Below, piece by piece: positions 28,186 through 35,867 of a DNA stretch of 45,499 bases (position 1 is the first letter of the stretch; every line of letters begins with the position of its first letter). The notes beneath the pieces were generated by a model. The model saw only the letters and a list, made by a program, of their open reading frames with translations. It made no database searches and had not been told where the DNA came from. The stretch is from positions 1-45,499 of the forward strand of contig JAVKIA010000019.1 in assembly GCA_031459715.1 (NCBI GenBank). The letters run 5' to 3'. The position numbers and the translations under genes are program-made. Source of the stretch: Candidatus Humicultor tengchongensis. GTDB taxonomy: Bacteria; Sysuimicrobiota; Sysuimicrobiia; Sysuimicrobiales; Humicultoraceae.

Positions 28186-29978
28186 CACTCCAGAATCATC
28201 TCCTTCACCGACTGCCCGGAGGGGATCATCGGGAAGCAGTTCTCCTGGGGGTCCACCAGGACGTCCAGCACCACAGGCACATCCGACACCTGCAGCGCCC
28301 AGGCCACCGCGTCCTCCACCTCCTCGGGGCGGCGCACGGTGCGCCCCGCGGCGCCGAAGACCTGGGCCAGCCGGGCGAAGTCGGGGTTCTGCAGCATGAC
28401 GTGGGAGTAGCGCTGGCGGTAGAAGAGCTGCTGCCACTGCCGCACCATGCCCAGGGAGCCGTTGTTGATGATGACCACCTTCACCGGGAGGCGCCACTCC
28501 ACCGCCGTGATCAGGTCCTGCAGCGTCATCTGGAACCCACCGTCGCCCACCAGCGCCACCACCGTGCGCTGCGGGCAGGCCAGCTGCGCCCCTATGGCTG
28601 CAGGGAAGCCGAACCCCATGGCCCCCAGGCCGCCGGAGCTGATGAAGGTGCGGGGCTCGCGGCAGCGGTAGAACTGCGCCGCCCACATCTGGTGCTGGCC
28701 CACATCCGTGACCACGATGGCCCTTTCCTGGGTGAGGCGGGCTACGGTCTCGCAGACGAACTGGGGCTTGATCACCTGGTCGCCCTGGCGGTAGCGCAGC
28801 GGGTAGCGCTCTCGCCACTCCTGGATCTGGCGCAGCCAGGGCTCGATCTGCGGCGGAGCCGTGATGCGCTCCACCAGGGCCGCCAGCACCAGCTTCGCGT
28901 CGCCCACGATGGGGATGTGCGCCGGCTTGTTCTTACCGATCTCCGCCGGGTCGATGTCGATGTGGATGAAGCGGGCGCGGGGGGCGAAGTCCGCCAGGCG
29001 CCCGGTCACGCGGTCGTCGAAGCGCACCCCCACCGCCAGGATCAGGTCGGCCTCGTTAATGGCGTAGTTGGCATACGCGGTGCCGTGCATCCCCAGCATG
29101 CCCAGACAACGGGGATGGTGCTCGTCGATGGCACCTTTGCCCATCAGGGTCACGGTGACGGGGATCCCCGTGCGCTCCACCAGGCGGGTCAGCTCCGCGG
29201 AGGCCCCCGCGGAGATCACCCCGCCGCCGGCATAGATAATGGGCCGCTCTGCTCCCTGCAGGGCCTCGGCCGCGGCGGCGATCTGGGCGGCGTTGCCCTC
29301 GCGGTGAGGGCGGTAGCGAGCGGTCACGTCTTCCACGGGGCGGGGGACGACCCGGGCCTGGGCCACATCGCGCGGCACGTCCACCAGCACCGGCCCCGGC
29401 CGGCCCGCGGCGGCCACGTAGAAGGCTTCGGCGATGGCCCGGGGCAGGTCGGCGGCATCCCAGACCTGGTAGGCGTGCTTGGTCACCGGCATGGTGATGC
29501 CGATGACGTCGGCCTCCTGGAAGGCGTCCCTCCCGATGACCGCGGTGGGCACCTGGCCGGTGATGGCCACCACCGGCACCGAATCCATGTGGGCGTCGGT
29601 CAGGCCGGTGACCAGGTTGGTGGCTCCCGGCCCGGAGGTGGCCATGCACACCCCCACCCGCCCCGAGGCCCGGGCGTAACCCACTGCTGCGTGGGCGGCC
29701 ACCTGCTCATGGCGAACCAGGACGTGCCGCAGGTCGGCGGCGTCGTAGAGGGCATCATAGATGGGTAACGAGGCGCCGCCGGGTATGCCAAAGATCACCG
29801 CAGCACCGGCCTGACGCAGGGCCTCGACCAGGAGCTCGGCCCCGGACCGGGTGACCTCCCGCCCGGTTGGGGCCAGCTCGCCTCGGGAGCGGCCCAATCG
29901 CGAACGGATTGCTGCCCGCGAGCCAGCCCCGTCTCCTGAGGGTGTGCGCCTGCCTGTGCGGGATGCGGTTACCGTCAT
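28185..29978 (-). CDS. ilvB: Acetolactate synthase large subunit
   Basis: 597 aa from ATG 29978 with GGAGGG 6 nt upstream. It is a TPP enzyme (...GIPGGASLPIYDAL..., ...LVGDGGFQMTLQDL...). The track start 30089 lies inside the T-box terminator region and is rejected. Confidence 0.92.
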   Translation of the reverse strand: MTVTASRTGRRTPSGDGAGSRAAIRSRLGRSRGELAPTGREVTRSGAELLVEALRQAGAAVIFGIPGGASLPIYDALYDAADLRHVLVRHEQVAAHAAVGYARASGRVGVCMATSGPGATNLVTGLTDAHMDSVPVVAITGQVPTAVIGRDAFQEADVIGITMPVTKHAYQVWDAADLPRAIAEAFYVAAAGRPGPVLVDVPRDVAQARVVPRPVEDVTARYRPHREGNAAQIAAAAEALQGAERPIIYAGGGVISAGASAELTRLVERTGIPVTVTLMGKGAIDEHHPRCLGMLGMHGTAYANYAINEADLILAVGVRFDDRVTGRLADFAPRARFIHIDIDPAEIGKNKPAHIPIVGDAKLVLAALVERITAPPQIEPWLRQIQEWRERYPLRYRQGDQVIKPQFVCETVARLTQERAIVVTDVGQHQMWAAQFYRCREPRTFISSGGLGAMGFGFPAAIGAQLACPQRTVVALVGDGGFQMTLQDLITAVEWRLPVKVVIINNGSLGMVRQWQQLFYRQRYSHVMLQNPDFARLAQVFGAAGRTVRRPEEVEDAVAWALQVSDVPVVLDVLVDPQENCFPMIPSGQSVKEMILE

Positions 29979-29994: not shown

Positions 29995-30290
29995 AAAACA
30001 AAATGAGCCACCCGTAAGGACGGGCAGCTCCCGTGGTACCACCTTACTTCCGGGGCCCAGAGGGGCGGGGCGGAGATCGCACCGCACATCGCGTGCGGGC
30101 CCGGCCCTGCCCGGAGACCCGGAACTCTTTGCCCGCTATCGGGGGCGAGGACGGCGGAACCTAGTCCCGGGGGACGTCGGTCCCGCGGCTCGGGGACGAG
30201 TTCGTGCGGTCACCGCGGCGGCCAGCTCCCACCTGCCCTGGCTCTCTCCACGCCGCGCGCCGCCTACTGCTTCCCCTCATCGCCGATAAA
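29995..30290 (-). promoter_or_regulatory. T-box riboswitch with Leu specifier CUC and an intrinsic terminator
   Basis: Minus-strand RNA features, in order:
- GA/K-turn GCGAUGAGGGG...CCCCGAGCC.
- AGUA on the 5' side of the specifier loop.
- AG bulge GGAGAGAGCC.
- Distal loop GGUGGGAG.
- Specifier loop ACGAA-CUC-G (CUC at 30200..30198).
- T-box core AAGGUGGUACCACGG (30045..30031).
- Competing segments ACGGG / CCCGU / ACGGG, giving terminator GCCCGUCCUUACGGGU followed by GGCUCAUUUUGUUUU. Confidence 0.8.
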
Positions 30291-30319: not shown

Positions 30320-30460
30320 GAAAGCCTGAGGCGACAGATTTCACGAGGAACCTCCCCCTCAGGCTTCTGTCCTGACGGCGTAGCGGCGACCGGTGCACCG
30401 CCTGCGCCGCTTGGTCCAGACCGGTCCCGGATGGGGACCGCGGAACCCTAGGCGCACTTC
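30320..30460 (-). promoter_or_regulatory. ykkC-family (subtype-2-like; ppGpp class suspected from gene context) riboswitch aptamer plus terminator-like expression platform
   Basis: The minus-strand RNA reads GCGCCUAGGGUUCCGCGGUCCCCAUCCGGGACCGGUCUGGACCAAGCGGCGCAGG...ACGCCGUCAGGACAGAAGCCUGAGGGGGAG. AAGCCUGAGG (30366..30357) can re-pair with CCUCAGGCUU (30331..30322), which is followed by UCGUGCUU. The architecture matches the CUAGGGUUCCG...ACG-hairpin-GAG ykkC fold. Confidence 0.7.
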
Positions 30461-30498
30461 CTCGATCGACCAGCCAAACTCCTATGGACTTGCCGCAA

Positions 30499-30528
30499 AC
30501 GCTAGCAGAGCGCGGAGCTGTTTGTCAA
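30499..30528 (-). promoter_or_regulatory. Putative promoter of the ilv-leu operon leader
   Basis: Minus strand reads TTGACA-N18-TAGCGT. The -35 hexamer overlaps the gltB stop codon (30525..30527). Confidence 0.45.
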
Positions 30529-33500
30529 GCCCTGAATCCCGAAAGTTCGGAATCTGGCGAACCGGCCGCCTCCGCAGCATCCTGTCCGAGGAGGCCGCGG
30601 GGGAGGACCTTTCGGAGGCGACCGGCTGAAAAAGGCCAGGCCTGCAGCAGCTCTGCCGCCCGCCGGCTCCCGGTGTGCGCCAGATGCTCGGCGAGGAGGT
30701 CGCGCAGCTCGTGCAGATCTTTCGCTTCGACCTGCACCACCGACACCGTCTCCTGGTTGCACCGGCCGGCGAACAGGCCGTCCTCGTCCAGGACGTAGGC
30801 CCGGCCCCCGGTCATCCCCGCACCGAAGTTGTAGCCGGCGCGGCCCAGCACCACCACTACCCCTCCGGTCATGTACTCGCACCCGTGGTCGCCCACCCCT
30901 TCCACTACGGCCACCGCGCCGCTGTTGCGCACGGCGAAGCGCTCGCCGGCGCGCCCCGCGGCGAAGAACCGGCCGCCGGTGGCGCCGTAGAGGACCGTGT
31001 TGCCCGCGATCACGTTCTCGTGGGAGGCGCCGGTGAAACCACGCGGCGGGCGGATGGCGATCGTTCCCCCGCTCATCCCCTTCCCCGCATAGTCGTTGAC
31101 CTCGCCCTCCAGCTCCAGGACCATCCCCGGGACGCAGAACGCGCCGAAGCTCTGACCCGCGCTCCCGGTAAACCGGAGCACGACGCGTCCCTCCCCCAGT
31201 CCTCCCTCCCCGTACCGCCTGGCGATGGCTCCGGCCAGGCGTCCGCCCACCGTCCGGTCCATGTTGCTGATGGAGTAGGTCAGGTGCACTGGGATGCCGC
31301 GCTCCAGGGCGGGCCAGGCGTCCATCCAGACGCGGTCGTCCAGGGTGGGGCCCTCGGGCCGCTTGTTGCGCGCCTGCATGCAGCGCCGCGCCGCCTCCGG
31401 CACCCCGGCGGACCCGGCCAGGAGCGCGGAAAGGCCGATACGGCGTCCCAGGACGGACTCGTCCACCGGGGATAGCAGCTCGCTGCGCCCGATGACCTCC
31501 TCCAGGGTGCGGGCGCCCAGCGCCGCCAGGTGACGCCGCACCTCCTCGGCCACCGCAAGCAGGTATGCCTCCACCCGCTCGGGCCGTCCGCTGAACCGGC
31601 CTCGCAGGTCCTCCCGCTGCGTGGCGATGCCGGTGGGGCAGGTGTTGAGGTGGCAGGCGCGGGCCATCACGCAGCCCAGGGCGACCAGCGCCGCGGTGCC
31701 GAAGCCGAACTCGTCTGCGCCCAGCAGGGCAGCCACGACCACGTCCCGCCCCGTTTTCAGCCCCCCGTCCACGCGCAGGCGGACCCGCCCGCGCAGCCCG
31801 CTGGCCACCAGCACCTGCTGGGTCTCCGCCAACCCCAGCTCCCAGGGCAGGCCCACGTGCTTGATGGACTCCAGGGGCGAGGCCCCCGTGCCGCCGTCGT
31901 GTCCGCTGATCTGGATGGTGTCGGCAAAGGCCTTGGCCACCCCCGCGGCGATGGTGCCCACACCGGCTTCCGCCACCAGCTTCACAGCCACGCGGGCCAG
32001 AGGATGGACTCGCTTGAGGTCGTAGATGAGCTGGGCCAGGTCCTCGATGCTGTAGATGTCGTGGTGGGGCGGCGGGGAGATCAGCGTGATCCCCGGCTGC
32101 GCGCGGCGGATGGCGGCGATCTCGGCGCTGACCTTGTGGCCGGGGAGCTGGCCTCCCTCGCCCGGCTTGCTCCCCTGCGCCATCTTGATCTCCAGCTCGT
32201 CGGCCGATACCAGGTAGGCCGCAGTCACCCCGAATCGTGCCGAGGCCACCTGCTTGATCCGGCTGTTGGCGTTGGTGCCGTCGGGCCGGGGGAGGTAGCG
32301 GGAGGGATCCTCGCCCCCCTCGCCGCTGTTGGAGCGGGCCCCCAGGCGGTTGGCGGCGATGGCCAGGGCCTCATGTGCCTCCCGGGAGAGCGCCCCGTGG
32401 GACATCGCTGAGAGGACGAAGCGGCGCACGATGGCGTCGGCAGGCTCCACCTCCTCCAGAGGGACGGGCTCCCGCCGGACAAAGGCCAGCAGGTCGCGCA
32501 GGGCGGTGGGGGGGCGGGAGGCGACCAGGTCGGCGAAGGCGGTGTAGGCCTGGCCGCTGCCCGACTGGGCGGCCTGGTGCAGCCGCTTCACTACATAAGG
32601 GTTGAAGGCGTGGTATTCACCGTCGCGGCGGAAGCGGACCAGCCCCGGGTCCGCCAGCTCTCCATCTCCGGCGAAGGCGCGTGCGTGGCGGGCGGCCGCC
32701 TGGGCGGCCAATTCGTCCAGGGAGACGCCGCCCAGGTGGGCGGGCGTGCCGGGGAAGTAGCGCTCCACCACCTGAGGGTCCAGCCCCACGACCTCGAAGA
32801 CCTGCCCGCCCTGGTACCCGGCGAGGGTGCTGATTCCCATCTTGCTGGCCACCTTGAGCAACCCCTGCTCCAGAGCGCTGAGGTACTGCCGGACCGAGGG
32901 TCGGCGGCCGTTGGCGGAGGGCAGCGCGGCCACGGTCTCCAGGGCCAGGTAGGGGCAGACCGCCTCAACTCCGTAGCCCAGCAGGCAGGCTACCTGGTGG
33001 ACGGTACGCGCTTCACCGCTCTCGACCAGCAGACCCACCCGCATGCGCAGCCCCACCCGGATGAGGTGATGGTGAACGGCGCTGGCGGCCAGGAGCATGG
33101 GGATGGGGATGCGTTTTGGGTCGGCGGCGCGGTCGCTGAGGATGAGCAGACCTGCCCCTTCTGAAACTGCGGATTCCGCCTCGCCGGCCAGACGGACAAG
33201 CGCAGCCTCCAGCGAGTCGCGGTCCGCAGGCCACGTGGCGTCCAGAACCACCGCCGGCCAGGGAGCGTGGGCGCGCACCCAGCCAAGCTGGTCGGGGGTG
33301 AGCACGGGCGAGGGGAAGGCCAGCAGCGCGGCGTGTTCGGGGCCATCCTCCAGCCAGTTGCGCCGCGGGCCCACCCGGACGGCAAGCGACATCACCAGCC
33401 GCTCCCGCAGGGGGTCGATCGGCGGATTGGTCACCTGGGCGAACCGCTGGCGGAAGTAATCGTAGAGGAGCCGGGGCCGTTGAGACAGGGCAGCGGGCGG

Positions 33501-35000
33501 GGTGTCGTCACCCATGGAGAAGACGACCTCCTTGCCCTCGGTGGCCATCGGCAGGAGGAGGTAGGTCACCTCTTCAGCCGTATACCCGAACACCTGCTGG
33601 CGGCGGCGCAGCCTGGCCCCGGCTGCGCTGTCTTGGGGTGGCGCTCCTGCATCAGGAGCGAGCGCCGCCTGCTCCGGCCCCTTCGCCGGCACCGGGGGTT
33701 CCCAGTTCCCGCCCGGGACGCGGATGATCCGGCGCGTCCACTCCCGGTAGGACCTGGCCGCGGCCACCTGTGCCTTTATCTCCGCGTCCGCCAGCATCTG
33801 GCCGGTGACAGTGTCCACCGCCAGGACCTGGCCCGGCCCCAACCGCCCCTTGCGCACCACCTGATCTGCGGGAAACGGTAGGACCCCAGCCTCTGACGCC
33901 AGCACTACCAGCCCCTCTGCCGTCACGGCGTAGCGGGCGGGTCGCAGGCCGTTACGGTCGAGGGCCGCGGCCACGATGCGCCCGTCGGAGCAGGCCAGCG
34001 CCGCGGGTCCGTCCCACGGCTCGGTCAGGCAGGCGTGGTACTCGTAGAAGGCGCGCACCGCATCGGGCAGGTCCGGGAGCTCCTCCCACGCCTGCGGGAC
34101 CAGCATCAGGAGGGCATGGAGCAGAGAGCGGCCCGAGGCCACCAGCAGCTCCAGGACGCTGTCCAGGTGGGCGCTGTCGCTTCCGCCCTCCTGCAGCAGC
34201 GGGACCAGGTCCCTCCACCGGTCGGCCCAGAGGGACTCCCGCAGCATCGCTTCCCGCGCGCGGGTCCAGAGGAGGTTGCCCTGCAGGGTGTTGATCTCCC
34301 CGTTGTGCGCCAGGTAGCGAAAGGGCTGGGCCAGCCACCAGCTGGGGGAGGTGTTGGTGCTGTACCGCTGGTGGAAGACCGCCAGCCGGGTGACGTAGGC
34401 GGGGTCGGTCAGGTCGCCATAGAAGCGCCCGAGTTGGGGGGAGACGAAGAGGCCTTTGTAGACCACGGTCCGGTGCGAGAAAGAAGCGATGTAGGCTCCA
34501 AGACCGGATTCCCGCAGGCGTCGCTCTGCCGTCCTCCGGGCGAGGTAGAGGCTGCGGGTGAAGGCAGGGTCATCATCCCCCGCCCGCCGCACGACCACGA
34601 GCTGTCGGATCACCGGCTGCGTCACGCGGGCGAAGGCTCCAAGTGCGTCCGGGTCTACGGGAACGGGCCGCCAGCCCAGGACGCGCAACCCCTGAGAACA
34701 CGCGGCCTGCTCAATCAGCGCCGCAGCCTCGTCTGCGGCAGCAGATGGCAGGAACACCATGGCCAGGGCCAGGTCCTCATCGCCCACGTCCCCCAGCGGG
34801 AGGTCGCGGCGCAGCAGGTCATAGGGAAGCTGGGTGAGCACCCCCGCTCCGTCCCCCGACTTCCCGTCGGCGGAGACGGCCCCACGGTGGCTCATCCGGG
34901 AGACGGCGGAGAGCGCCGCGGCCAGCACAGCGTGGCTGGGGAAGCGGTGGGCAACGAACCCTACGCCGCAGGCGTCGTGTTCCGCGATCGGGCTGACCAC
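30525..35000 (-). CDS. gltB: Glutamate synthase large subunit (GltB / Fd-GOGAT-like single large chain)
   Basis: 1491 aa from GTG 35000 with a perfect AAGGGAGG 4 nt upstream. The N-terminus MVSPIAEHDA-CGVGFVA gives the Ntn-amidotransferase Cys1 after a short propeptide. FMN and C-terminal GXGXG domains are present. Track start 35108 lies inside the riboswitch platform and is rejected. Confidence 0.93.
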   Translation of the reverse strand: MVSPIAEHDACGVGFVAHRFPSHAVLAAALSAVSRMSHRGAVSADGKSGDGAGVLTQLPYDLLRRDLPLGDVGDEDLALAMVFLPSAAADEAAALIEQAACSQGLRVLGWRPVPVDPDALGAFARVTQPVIRQLVVVRRAGDDDPAFTRSLYLARRTAERRLRESGLGAYIASFSHRTVVYKGLFVSPQLGRFYGDLTDPAYVTRLAVFHQRYSTNTSPSWWLAQPFRYLAHNGEINTLQGNLLWTRAREAMLRESLWADRWRDLVPLLQEGGSDSAHLDSVLELLVASGRSLLHALLMLVPQAWEELPDLPDAVRAFYEYHACLTEPWDGPAALACSDGRIVAAALDRNGLRPARYAVTAEGLVVLASEAGVLPFPADQVVRKGRLGPGQVLAVDTVTGQMLADAEIKAQVAAARSYREWTRRIIRVPGGNWEPPVPAKGPEQAALAPDAGAPPQDSAAGARLRRRQQVFGYTAEEVTYLLLPMATEGKEVVFSMGDDTPPAALSQRPRLLYDYFRQRFAQVTNPPIDPLRERLVMSLAVRVGPRRNWLEDGPEHAALLAFPSPVLTPDQLGWVRAHAPWPAVVLDATWPADRDSLEAALVRLAGEAESAVSEGAGLLILSDRAADPKRIPIPMLLAASAVHHHLIRVGLRMRVGLLVESGEARTVHQVACLLGYGVEAVCPYLALETVAALPSANGRRPSVRQYLSALEQGLLKVASKMGISTLAGYQGGQVFEVVGLDPQVVERYFPGTPAHLGGVSLDELAAQAAARHARAFAGDGELADPGLVRFRRDGEYHAFNPYVVKRLHQAAQSGSGQAYTAFADLVASRPPTALRDLLAFVRREPVPLEEVEPADAIVRRFVLSAMSHGALSREAHEALAIAANRLGARSNSGEGGEDPSRYLPRPDGTNANSRIKQVASARFGVTAAYLVSADELEIKMAQGSKPGEGGQLPGHKVSAEIAAIRRAQPGITLISPPPHHDIYSIEDLAQLIYDLKRVHPLARVAVKLVAEAGVGTIAAGVAKAFADTIQISGHDGGTGASPLESIKHVGLPWELGLAETQQVLVASGLRGRVRLRVDGGLKTGRDVVVAALLGADEFGFGTAALVALGCVMARACHLNTCPTGIATQREDLRGRFSGRPERVEAYLLAVAEEVRRHLAALGARTLEEVIGRSELLSPVDESVLGRRIGLSALLAGSAGVPEAARRCMQARNKRPEGPTLDDRVWMDAWPALERGIPVHLTYSISNMDRTVGGRLAGAIARRYGEGGLGEGRVVLRFTGSAGQSFGAFCVPGMVLELEGEVNDYAGKGMSGGTIAIRPPRGFTGASHENVIAGNTVLYGATGGRFFAAGRAGERFAVRNSGAVAVVEGVGDHGCEYMTGGVVVVLGRAGYNFGAGMTGGRAYVLDEDGLFAGRCNQETVSVVQVEAKDLHELRDLLAEHLAHTGSRRAAELLQAWPFSAGRLRKVLPRGLLGQDAAEAAGSPDSELSGFRA

Positions 35001-35088
35001 TGGACCTCCCTTAGACTTCCTCAGGGCAAGCCGTCCGTCACAGGCGACTTTCAGGACAGCGCCCGCTCCAGGATCCCCTGCTATGCAC

Positions 35089-35300
35089 GAAGCCCGAGGG
35101 CGAGGCACCCACCGGACTGTGCACTCCGGCGAGTGCGAACCTCTCCCTCGGGCTTCTCTCCCGATGGTAGACCGGCCGACCCCACCCGATCCGCTCAGGA
35201 ACCAGACCGGGGAACTGTCGGTATTTCGCTGCCGGCCTGCGCCGCTTGAACCAGGCCTTCCCCTGGTGGAGGAAGCGGAACCCTAGGCGCCTCTCGCGCC
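35089..35300 (-). promoter_or_regulatory. Second ykkC-family (subtype-2-like) riboswitch with expression platform, upstream of gltB
   Basis: The minus-strand RNA reads GCGCCUAGGGUUCCGCUUCCUCCACCAGGGGAAGGCCUGGUUCAAGCGGCGCAGG...(insert of about 65 nt)...ACCAUCGGGAGAGAAGCCCGAGGGAGAG. GAAGCCCGAGGG (35156..35145) is perfectly complementary to CCCUCGGGCUUC (35100..35089). A TTGACA lies at 35350..35345, about 58 nt upstream of the aptamer. Confidence 0.7.
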
Positions 35301-35564
35301 AAGCGCGAGGAACTTGGCGCCATGGTTGCAGCCGGTCGGGATCCTGTCAAGCGGTTCGTTCGCGTAACTCGAACATTCTGGCAAGAACCCGGGGAGCGCA
35401 TGTGGCTCCCCTGACGGCTTCCGCTCCCTGCAGTGCCTGAGATCCGAGCCTGGGCCTGCGAGCGATCCCCGGGCCGGGCCGTGGACTCCCACGCTCGGTG
35501 AGGCCCTGAAAGCTCTCACTTCCGGCCGATCCTCATTCCTGGTAAGGTCAAAAGATGATCGCCC

Positions 35565-35867
35565 ATGGGGACCGAGACCACCGGCGTCAGGCTTGCCCGG
35601 CTGGAAGGCGCCTACGAGCAGATTGACAGGCGCCTGGGCACCATCGAGGGGCGCCTGGCCGTGCTGGAAGGCAAGGTGGACGCCGGGTTCGCCCGACTCG
35701 ACGCCAAGATCGGCGGGAAGATCGACGCGCTCGCCTCCGAGCTGCGGGAGGCGATCGTGCGTACCAACGCCCGGATGGATGCCCTGGGCGCCCGTCTGAA
35801 CACCGCGATGTTTGGCATCGTGGCCGCCGTCCTGGTTCCCATCCTCCTGCGCCTTTTCTGGCCCTGA
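35565..35867 (+). CDS. Small coiled-coil protein with a C-terminal transmembrane helix (hypothetical; DUF1640/XhlA-like appearance)
   Basis: 100-aa ORF with strong GC3 bias and sensible composition. It shows heptad-like repeats (RLARLEGAYEQIDRRLGTIEGRLAVLEGKVD...) and the C-terminal segment MFGIVAAVLVPILLRLFW. The ORF ends 9 nt before the stop of the convergent hom gene. Confidence 0.55.
   Translation: MGTETTGVRLARLEGAYEQIDRRLGTIEGRLAVLEGKVDAGFARLDAKIGGKIDALASELREAIVRTNARMDALGARLNTAMFGIVAAVLVPILLRLFWP

Follow-up and report, generated by a model that had tools for sequence, protein, structure and literature searches.

The ppGpp (guanosine tetraphosphate) riboswitch is subtype 2a of the ykkC RNAs (Sherlock, Sudarsan and Breaker 2018, PMC6003355; refined model in PMC9881157). 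Among 105 published examples 78 stand before branched-chain amino acid (BCAA) genes, 15 before glutamate synthase and 12 before natA operons; genomes with glutamate synthase copies usually have BCAA copies too, and a leucine T-box occurs in tandem with about 40% of the BCAA copies (PMC6003355). The switch is of the ON-type, with P3 as the antiterminator (PMC6003355). Here we describe an RNA of this kind in the leader of gltB, the gene of the glutamate synthase large subunit, on a 45,499-nucleotide stretch of DNA from Candidatus Humicultor tengchongensis (contig JAVKIA010000019.1; this whole stretch is called the window below). A ppGpp-class riboswitch before gltB is known as a kind of element, and the T-box tandem and the co-occurrence with a BCAA copy are published traits as well. 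The element itself appears to be a new structural variant of the class, conserved in at least three species outside Firmicutes. We conclude, with a probability of about 0.6, that the gltB leader is a cis-acting, lineage-specific ON riboswitch that comes from the ppGpp class, occurs in at least three related Armatimonadota-like species of hot springs and likely has (p)ppGpp as its ligand.

The gltB gene is read from the minus strand, and positions 35301-35130 of its leader form a ykkC-type aptamer fold that lies 3' of a presumed TTGACA/AACCAT promoter and ends 130 nt before the gltB start (GTG at 35000).

30525-35000, minus strand: gltB, glutamate synthase large subunit, 1491 aa (Pfam GATase_2, Glu_syn_central, Glu_synthase and GXGXG, E down to 1.6e-154)
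35130-35301, minus strand: ykkC-type aptamer with P0, P1, P1a, P1b, P2 with an insertion, P3 and 3' tail (RF00442, custom subtype-2 model R1, pair counts)

Read from 5' to 3', the aptamer consists of GCGCC-UA-GGGUUCCG, P1b, CUGGUUCAAGCG-GCGC, a long P2, and the junction and P3, UACCAUC-GGG-AGAGAAG-CCC-GAGGGAGAGGUU; all of the helices P1, P1a, P1b, P2 and P3 are there around the CUAGGGUUCCG / GGNCC core. The string CTAGGGTTCCG occurs in the window only at the gltB leader and at the leader of ilvB. The original prediction, which was made from the sequence alone and placed a second ykkC-like riboswitch before gltB, had suggested an Rfam search. At gathering thresholds this search gave no match in the window. 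With E-value thresholds, RF00442 (ykkC/Guanidine-I) was the sole family matching the gltB leader region, at 35297-35143 with 42.8 bits (E 3.3e-6 in an 801-nt search, 1.8e-4 over the whole window). The ilvB copy matched the same family at 30462-30353 with 58.8 bits (E 4.8e-8) and, canonical as it is, also remains under the gathering score, because the model represents subtype 1. In an alignment of 11 related aptamers the canonical structure, including P0, has 92.1% of its cells paired and contains 16 doubly changed pairs, a number reached in 0 of 500 shuffles, while slid controls were 31-53% paired; the three gltB orthologues introduced below are 92.8% paired when taken alone. The ykkC fold at the gltB leader is no chance similarity.

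Subtype 2 is distinguished from guanidine-I aptamers by a pyrimidine in place of A46, and ppGpp aptamers are told from those for phosphoribosyl pyrophosphate (PRPP) by having no G at position 96 (PMC6031431).

35244-35245, minus strand: subtype-2 marker G35245-C35244 of CAAGCG (Rfam alignment, GAGAG versus AAGCG; invariant in three orthologues)

Guanidine-I riboswitches (RF00442, subtype 1) share P1, P1a, P1b, P2, P3 and the CUAGGGUUCCG core with the gltB leader, but they have an A at the marker (GAGAG), where the leader has C35244, and they differ further by a conserved G in the P3 S-turn, the lack of P0 and their association with guanidine detoxification genes. The equivalent of position 96 is A35148 (CCCG-A-G), the middle one of three nucleotides past the upper P3 3' strand. 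PRPP riboswitches (subtype 2b; PMC5912903, PMC6031431) have a near-identical scaffold, with P0 and ACAC in canonical members, but carry the conserved G96 (CCCAGNCGG) in a purine-biosynthesis context; the gltB leader has neither, as A35148 stands at this position and gltB is downstream. A genome-wide pattern scan for ykkC subtype-2-like RNAs, which gave at least 120 loci, shows the same division: among the loci listed, RNAs bearing CCCAGNCGGGUAGG precede purL, purE, purC and purine permeases, and ilvB, ilvD, ilvE, ilvN, gltS-like and livJ-like genes follow RNAs in which the middle position is A. Subtypes 2c (NUDIX/HAD hydrolase) and 2d (EamA/TauE transporter) are set apart by gene context alone (PMC7266159), which here is gltB. 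The purine linker between P3 and P0, A-G-A-G-G (35144-35140), has the four to five purines of the class and is the same as in L054, a canonical aptamer of Ca. Thermofontivivens primus. The gene association also agrees with the class, with gltB downstream and an ilvBNC copy plus a T-box in the same window. By its sequence features the gltB leader RNA has the ykkC subtype 2 fold; we take it to work like, and to descend from, a ppGpp riboswitch, with a putative membership in a class that is defined by its ligand.

It is useful to compare the general features of the gltB element to those of the ppGpp riboswitch. The two share the ykkC fold, the pyrimidine marker, a nucleotide other than G at position 96, the G-C of CAAGCG and the five-purine linker, as well as the association with gltB, a BCAA copy in tandem with a leucine T-box, and a competition between P3 and a downstream strand that is typical of an ON switch. 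The gltB variant differs by CUAC or CCAC in place of ACAC, a junction that is one nucleotide shorter, G and A facing each other at the base of P1, a 54-nt three-way P2, the involvement of the P0 5' strand in a 5' hairpin, the lack of a U-tract, and scores on a subtype-2 model about 37-47 bits lower than those of canonical relatives. The hosts are different too: mainly Firmicutes for the known class, Armatimonadota-like bacteria for the variant.

The nearest term of comparison is the copy before ilvB, 4.8 kb from the gltB copy.

30342-30465, minus strand: canonical ppGpp-type aptamer in the ilvB leader, P0 CGAGGAA/UUCCUCG (RF00442 58.8 bits; R1 86.8 bits)
30013-30289, minus strand: T-box leader, specifier CUC (Leu; ACGAA-CUC-G), upstream of ilvB with ATG at 29978 (RF00230 45.4 bits, E 6.4e-7)

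The T-box terminator (30030-30005) is followed by the U-tract ATTTTGTTTT, and the genes after the T-box are ilvB (Pfam TPP_enzyme domains), ilvN and ilvC. An aptamer followed by a T-box corresponds to the published two-input AND-gate arrangement; the ilvB aptamer also has an anti-P3 helix of its own (30366-30357 / 30331-30322) with the tail UCGUGCUU. The details that the original prediction had seen in the two copies are borne out. Their 5' halves are near-identical (GCGCCUAGGGUUCCGC...CAAGCGGCGCAGG), P1b has three double-sided changes between them (GGUCCC/GGGACC versus CUUCC/GGAAG), P3 differs in a compensatory manner (CAGG/CCUG versus CGGG/CCCG), and the anti-P3 strands covary with P3 (CCUCAGGCUU versus CCCUCGGGCUUC). 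The proposed pairing of glutamate synthase with BCAA synthesis in a ppGpp-riboswitch regulon likewise agrees with the gltB and ilvBNC copies found here and with the published associations (PMC6003355). The claim of a shared fold and mechanism was right as to the fold, which is ykkC subtype 2 and covaries with the ilvB copy, but the gltB copy is without the P2-ACAC pocket motif. The view that the gltB copy is the same sensor with an insertion is not supported in this form, as this copy falls short of the ilvB copy by about 37 bits on the subtype-2 model and ACAC is missing. Positions 30381-30378 of the ilvB aptamer in turn read ACGC (G at 30379) instead of ACAC, fixed in all four metagenome-assembled genomes (MAGs) of the species, while the ilvB copy of the sister species L126 has ACAC; with CUAC in the gltB copy, both riboswitch copies of this organism thus deviate in the pocket motif. 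The tail of the ilvB-copy terminator is UUUCGUUUUU in L126 (5301-5930) and UUUCGUGCUU in the window (30561-29932); the U-tracts of these leaders are eroded to differing degrees between the sister species.

Both window copies belong to a small group of aptamers with the tail GCCYGAGRG..AGGUU. Its other members are found in Armatimonadota MAGs (L007 and L036, before TPP-enzyme/ilvB genes), in Ca. Thermofontivivens primus of the Ca. Sysuimicrobiota (L013 before ilvB and L054 before gltB, both canonical) and in Atribacterota (L084 and L096). In this group P3 forms a continuous helix of 8 bp that has one mismatch, a register backed by pair 135-155, which is CG in 9 and UA in 2 aptamers. The tail and the continuous one-mismatch P3 are common to the gltB variant, the window ilvB copy and L054. 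In its P3 3' strand and tail L054 does not differ from the variant at all, and it likewise stands before gltB. The ilvB copy and L054 differ from the variant by ACAC (ACGC in the window ilvB copy), a short P2 and a covarying P0, and L054 in addition by a U5 terminator tail. The Atribacterota aptamers (L084:2488-2607, L096:3220-3339) precede genes of GAF-ANTAR proteins (L084:1675-2376; L096:3556-4251), RNA-binding antiterminator regulators that were not found among the published gene associations consulted for the ppGpp class.

The conservation of the gltB variant was followed in a metagenome scan that required the exact core and a P2 of 60-90 nt, so that it covers close relatives only. It gave orthologous gltB leaders from other species, L124 and L126 (the latter leader being identical to L130), and with the window these make three independent variant sequences. 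MAGs with an identical GltB (L121-L123, L131) are 99.9-100% identical to the window and add no information. In protein searches for GltB relatives, the matches listed comprised only fragments of less than 900 aa, none above 68% identity. L124 and L126 share all oddities of the gltB leader in the window. Their GltB proteins are 86-90% identical to the window protein, with 64-76% identity at four-fold degenerate sites, and the identity along the leader varies as follows:

Aptamer core: 92-99% identity between orthologues
Competing strand with tail: 92%
5' hairpin region: 83-92%
P2 insertion: 67-74%
Spacer: 30-64%

The comparison of 92-99% in the core with 64-76% at the four-fold sites shows that the aptamer core is under selection. 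To judge from these alignments, the pattern is that of a folded, selected RNA and not of a decaying one.

Two parts of the element set it apart from the canonical relatives. One is the extension of P2, the base of which has 7 bp (35237-35231 / 35176-35170).

35177-35230, minus strand: 54-nt P2 insertion with a weak proximal element and the distal hairpin P2b (in all three orthologues; identity 67-74%)
35180-35212, minus strand: P2b stems, outer 35212-35209 / 35183-35180 and inner 35205-35199 / 35192-35186 (orthologue alignment)

The extra segment of about 50 nt in the original prediction is found again as 52 nt in the P2 loop of the Rfam alignment, or as 54 nt (35230-35177) between the strands of the 7-bp P2. 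Other RNAs of the family can have long P2 arms too, the distance from CAAGYG to P3 having a median of 32 and a maximum of 65 in 95 sampled RNAs, but the 80 nt of the gltB variant are the longest observed. Two compensatory double changes from CG to UA occur in the outer stem of P2b among the orthologues and wobble-compatible changes (C to U, G-C to G-U) in the inner stem, and in L124, where two nucleotides are deleted in a length-compensated manner, a continuous 13-bp helix takes the place of the internal loop. The P2b loop varies (CUGAGC versus CGGGC), and since its sequence is not conserved it gives no sign of a specific tertiary contact. ACACC-like and GGGUGAGGUUC-like strings in L126 raised the possibility that the insertion is a duplicate of the aptamer 3' half; this was rejected by local alignment against shuffles (p >0.1 in the window and L124, about 0.02 in L126).

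The other part is the 5' end, where a hairpin follows the presumed promoter.

35345-35350, minus strand: -35-like hexamer TTGACA of the presumed gltB promoter (read directly; identical in L124 and L126)
35322-35327, minus strand: -10-like hexamer AACCAT, 17 nt past the -35 (read directly; conserved in three orthologues)
35293-35309, minus strand: 5' hairpin CUCGCGC-UUG-GCGCGAG, the 3' strand of which doubles as the P0 5' strand (stem invariant in three species)

The hexamers predict a transcript start near 35315-35313; TTGACA at 35350-35345 was not listed in a strict promoter scan. Directly 5' of the -35 there is an inverted repeat, GTTCGA-N5-GCGAAC (35374-35358), which reads GTTCGC-N5-GCGAAC in L124 and L126, where the flanks have diverged; it could be a candidate transcription-factor site, e.g. 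of a nitrogen regulator. The loop of the 5' hairpin differs among the three species (UUG, GUC, CUAGU). An alternative upstream hairpin, GCGCCAAG/CUUGGCGC, was dropped as it is not conserved in L124 or L126, and an anti-P1 pairing, GGCGCC/GGCGCC, in the free-energy fold was set aside as it probably lies upstream of the transcript start. Canonical P0 helices covary (CGAGGAA/UUCCUCG, GGAGGAA/UUCCUCC, CAGAA/UUCUG). In the variant GCGCGAG (35299-35293) forms 6 of 7 pairs with UUCGCAC (35139-35133), and two changes in L126 are compatible with this pairing or improve it. We speculate that the 5' hairpin may be an anti-P0 element, a substitute for P0 or a stabiliser of the 5' end.

Downstream of the aptamer lies the part that should translate its state into gltB expression.

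35089-35156, minus strand: anti-P3 helix GAAGCCCGAGGGAGAGG / CCUCGCCCUCGGGCUUC plus inner hairpin 35135-35125 / 35116-35106 (17 positions, 16 paired)
35079-35088, minus strand: U-poor tail GUGCAUAGCA, conserved with the preceding CUUC as CUUC-RUG-CAU-A (columns 217-241 92% identical)
35013-35078, minus strand: poorly conserved spacer from the helix tail to the ribosome-binding site (30-64% identity; no Rfam match)
34998-35012, minus strand: Shine-Dalgarno sequence AAGGGAGG at 35012-35005 and gltB GTG start at 35000-34998 (translation gives VVSPIAEHDACGVGF)

NCBI gene calls on identical contigs have the same gltB start. The 12-bp competing helix proposed earlier (35156-35145 / 35100-35089) is perfect, and in its full extent the anti-P3 helix covers 35156-35140 / 35105-35089 with one A/G mismatch and is near-invariant in the three species: CCUCGCCCUCGGGCUUC (35105-35089) is complementary to the P3 3' strand and its purine tail (35156-35140). 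Together with the inner hairpin it gives a rod of about 30 bp, and the anti-P3 state is the minimum free energy structure, 16-23 kcal/mol below the fold with P1 and P3 enforced. The distance from the helix to the Shine-Dalgarno sequence, given before as about 90 nt, measures 76 nt, with 88 nt to the GTG. As had been noted, the 12-bp helix is followed by CGUGCAUAGC without a U-tract. In the 10 nt past the anti-P3 strand there are 2 T, as compared to a median of 6 in 65 subtype-2 leaders (3-6 in GC-rich examples), and the three orthologous gltB leaders have the most U-poor tails of all 65. This agrees with the earlier suspicion that regulation here may take a way other than classical intrinsic termination. 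A pairing between the freed strand and the Shine-Dalgarno region is specific to the window and not conserved.

One alternative is that the output is post-transcriptional, either through a start codon at 35088 that is unmasked and opens a short frame coupled to gltB, or through the helix as a target of an RNase, by which the stability of the mRNA would be set. The conserved CUUC-RUG-CAU-A in the most U-poor of the 65 tails, with G, G and A at the first codon position, and the length of the helix plus inner hairpin speak for it. The RUG-CAU-A motif abuts the competing helix (35088-35038, minus strand) and begins with GUG, GUG and AUG in the three species, but the RUG has no Shine-Dalgarno sequence before it in any of them and the frames are inconsistent, with 16 codons in the window, 19 codons in L126 and an in-frame read-through into gltB in L124, and no peptide is conserved. 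An upstream reading frame starting at the RUG was rejected on these grounds and survives only as a weak rival. The base composition of the spacer, which is G-rich (38-41% G, 22-27% C) and unlike a Rho utilisation site, also speaks against this alternative, which we consider doubtful as a whole. With low confidence, we take the output of the proposed riboswitch to be weak or factor-assisted attenuation, or an effect on stability, at the helix.

The differences of the gltB copy from canonical aptamers cluster at the four-way junction, i.e. at the ligand pocket. Their extent can be read from a subtype-2 covariance model (R1) that was built from 84 canonical aptamers with the relatives of the group held out:

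L013, canonical, held out: 92.8 bits
L126 ilvB copy, canonical, held out: 88.0 bits
L054, canonical, held out: 86.9 bits
Window ilvB copy: 86.8 bits
Window gltB copy: 50.3 bits, E 9.5e-13
L126 gltB orthologue: 47.2 bits
L124 gltB orthologue: 40.2 bits

The residues concerned are the following:

35164-35170, minus strand: P2-P3 junction C-U-A-C-C-A-U, canonical A-C-A-C-C-G-U (MAFFT and covariance model, CUAC opposite ACAC)
35291-35292, minus strand: P0-P1 junction A35292 and G35291; G35291 faces A35238, a U-A pair in canonical RNAs (alignment)
35145-35167, minus strand: P3, CC-A-UCGGG / loop AGAGAAG / CCCGA-G-GG, continuous with one A/G mismatch (pair 135-155 CG 9, UA 2)

In canonical aptamers G-6 is the pairing partner of the first A of ACAC, and the guanine of the ppGpp ligand that of the first C; the second A and C make contacts to G-43 and to the 3' phosphates (PMC9881157, PMC6031431). 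Among the genome loci listed, 86 of the 95 recognisable subtype-2 RNAs carry ACAC, and the exceptions in this sample are mostly other subtypes before transporter genes. In the gltB variant the first nucleotide of the ACAC equivalent becomes part of P2 by pairing, which shortens the junction by one nucleotide. Since the P3 3' strand is identical and its register is the same as in L054, A35168, C35167 and C35166 would be the second A, the second C and the next C, which leaves a single pyrimidine (U, U and C in the three species) where canonical RNAs have A-C. The shortened junction can be aligned in three ways; the homology of the P3 register favours the version of MAFFT and the covariance model, without proving it. 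At the base of P1, 8 of the 11 aptamers have a UA pair and the 3 variants no pair, and in the alignment of the three orthologues the two positions are never paired; A35292-G35291 is invariant and matches the order of A-5 and the unpaired G-6, yet G35291 sits in the column of the canonical pairing U. The first unpaired position of lower P3 is A in the variant and G in canonical RNAs.

A number of these results weigh against a (p)ppGpp riboswitch. The RF00442 score of 42.8 bits is below the gathering score (63), and the gltB variants reach 40-50 bits on R1, as opposed to 87-93 for the held-out canonical relatives. The P2-ACAC motif is replaced by CUAC in the window and L124 and by CCAC in L126, and a tested aptamer in which this motif is without its first A failed to bind (p)ppGpp (PMC9881157). 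Two of the three species have a U (U35169 in the window) where the alignment puts the guanine-pairing C, and a C-to-U mutant at the first C prefers an adenine ligand (PMC6003355). P0 of the variant shows no double changes and competes with an invariant 7-bp hairpin (formed with 35309-35303), in a set of three sequences. At the output stage the U-tract of an intrinsic terminator is missing, constrained folding of the three orthologues gave no conserved anti-Shine-Dalgarno pairing, and sequestration of the Shine-Dalgarno sequence was rejected, as its accessibility did not rise in the aptamer state in the same foldings. Finally, the sample consists of three species. The pocket results also touch the earlier idea that one signal serves both operons: it is plausible, but the pocket motifs of the two copies differ, and published aptamers without the first A do not bind (p)ppGpp (PMC9881157).

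The changed junction could mean that the same scaffold now holds a different ligand, for instance an adenine alarmone like (p)ppApp, a nucleoside diphosphate or triphosphate or some other phosphorylated metabolite, in which case the element would be an undescribed ykkC subtype. U35169 is opposite the guanine-pairing C in both the covariance-model and the MAFFT alignment, and the register based on L054 leaves one nucleotide where canonical RNAs have A-C. The engineered C71U mutant (M8) of the T. oceani ilvE ppGpp aptamer (PMC6003355) takes an adenine ligand and, provided that the covariance-model alignment is right, would have in common with the variant a U opposite the ligand base; M8 is otherwise canonical and man-made, while the gltB variant also lacks the first A and its sister L126 has C. 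The discoverers of the class looked for a natural aptamer of the adenine alarmone without finding one (PMC6003355). The ykkC scaffold has repeatedly changed its ligand through one or a few substitutions (PMC6031431, PMC7266159), and the variant is conserved under selection. On the other hand, a base that recognises the ligand would be expected to stay the same in sister species with the same regulated gene, whereas L126 has C, position 35169 is the only variable nucleotide of the junction, which suggests a weaker constraint, the alignment of the one-nt-shorter junction is not unique, and the gene context is the classical ppGpp regulon. We consider a different ligand unlikely. As the founding example of an undescribed subtype, the gltB element would owe another ligand preference to its short junction, three-way P2 and 5' hairpin; (p)ppApp may be one candidate ligand, and the output may also be other than a terminator. 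We rate this quite unlikely.

Another explanation is that the sensor has decayed into a ligand-independent structured 5' untranslated region, e.g. a constitutive attenuator, an mRNA stabiliser (the 5' hairpin) or a protein-binding site, with nitrogen control exerted at the promoter. The loss of ACAC, the stability of the competing helix, far above that of the aptamer state, and the conserved inverted repeat at 35374-35358, which could carry the regulation, are in line with it, as is the failure of predicted subtype-2a aptamers with such defects to bind (PMC9881157). However, the unpaired residues of CUAGGGUUCCG, CAAGCG, ACC and GAGAGG are invariant in three species in which neutral sites have diverged by 24-36%, and this is hard to explain without a tertiary fold. 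Pairing in P1b, P2b and P3 is moreover kept through compensatory changes. Decay of the sensor seems very unlikely to us.

We thus prefer a riboswitch whose ligand is most probably the guanosine alarmone (p)ppGpp, by analogy with the class. In its favour are the context of the gene, the ilvB copy as a partner and the agreement of most pocket residues with the class, these residues being the G-C of CAAGCG, the A-G before P1, the five-purine linker and the A at position 96. The loss of an A and the U or C at the base-recognition column suggest that recognition is at least altered, and the affinity or specificity of the rewired gltB pocket may differ from the canonical one. As the sister species differ at this column, either the rewired junction does not use it for recognition, or the pocket accepts G-U as well as G-C; that the ligand itself changed from one species to the other seems least likely.

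The proposed mechanism is as follows. Transcription would start a few nucleotides before the 5' hairpin, as the promoter hexamers suggest, and the aptamer folds with P1, P1a, P1b, the long three-way P2 and P3, as in the alignments above. In the ligand-free RNA the downstream strand would capture the P3 3' strand and purine tail into the 17-position helix that is favoured in folding. By comparison with the canonical class, the ligand at the four-way junction would stabilise P3, and possibly P0, block the helix and raise gltB expression, so that gltB would be turned on when the alarmone rises. The output would be reduced elongation or stability at the U-poor helix rather than intrinsic termination or sequestration of the Shine-Dalgarno sequence; this is the least certain step.

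Two further observations concern the surroundings of the element and the wider family. A 100-aa reading frame (35565-35867, plus strand) lies between hom and the gltB promoter, divergent from gltB; it is a gene call in NCBI MAG annotations and has no Pfam match. Among other ykkC subtype-2-like RNAs, a GCACC or GCAUC junction instead of ACACC is found in L125, L127 and L128 (metagenome contigs) and in L016, L028, L044, L095, L104, L115 and L117; several of them stand before genes of EamA-like transporters, in agreement with the orphan subtype 2d, and L125 reaches 49.6 bits on the subtype-2 model.

What do these findings mean for the ppGpp riboswitch? The host range of a class known mainly from Firmicutes is seen here to include Armatimonadota-like and Ca. 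Sysuimicrobiota bacteria of hot springs. The gltB variant, selected and yet without the ACAC that is essential according to published binding data, is a natural test of how the ykkC pocket can be rewired or of a further ligand. The output, with neither a U-tract nor evident sequestration of the Shine-Dalgarno sequence, could show in what way switches of this kind work in lineages that are rich in GC.

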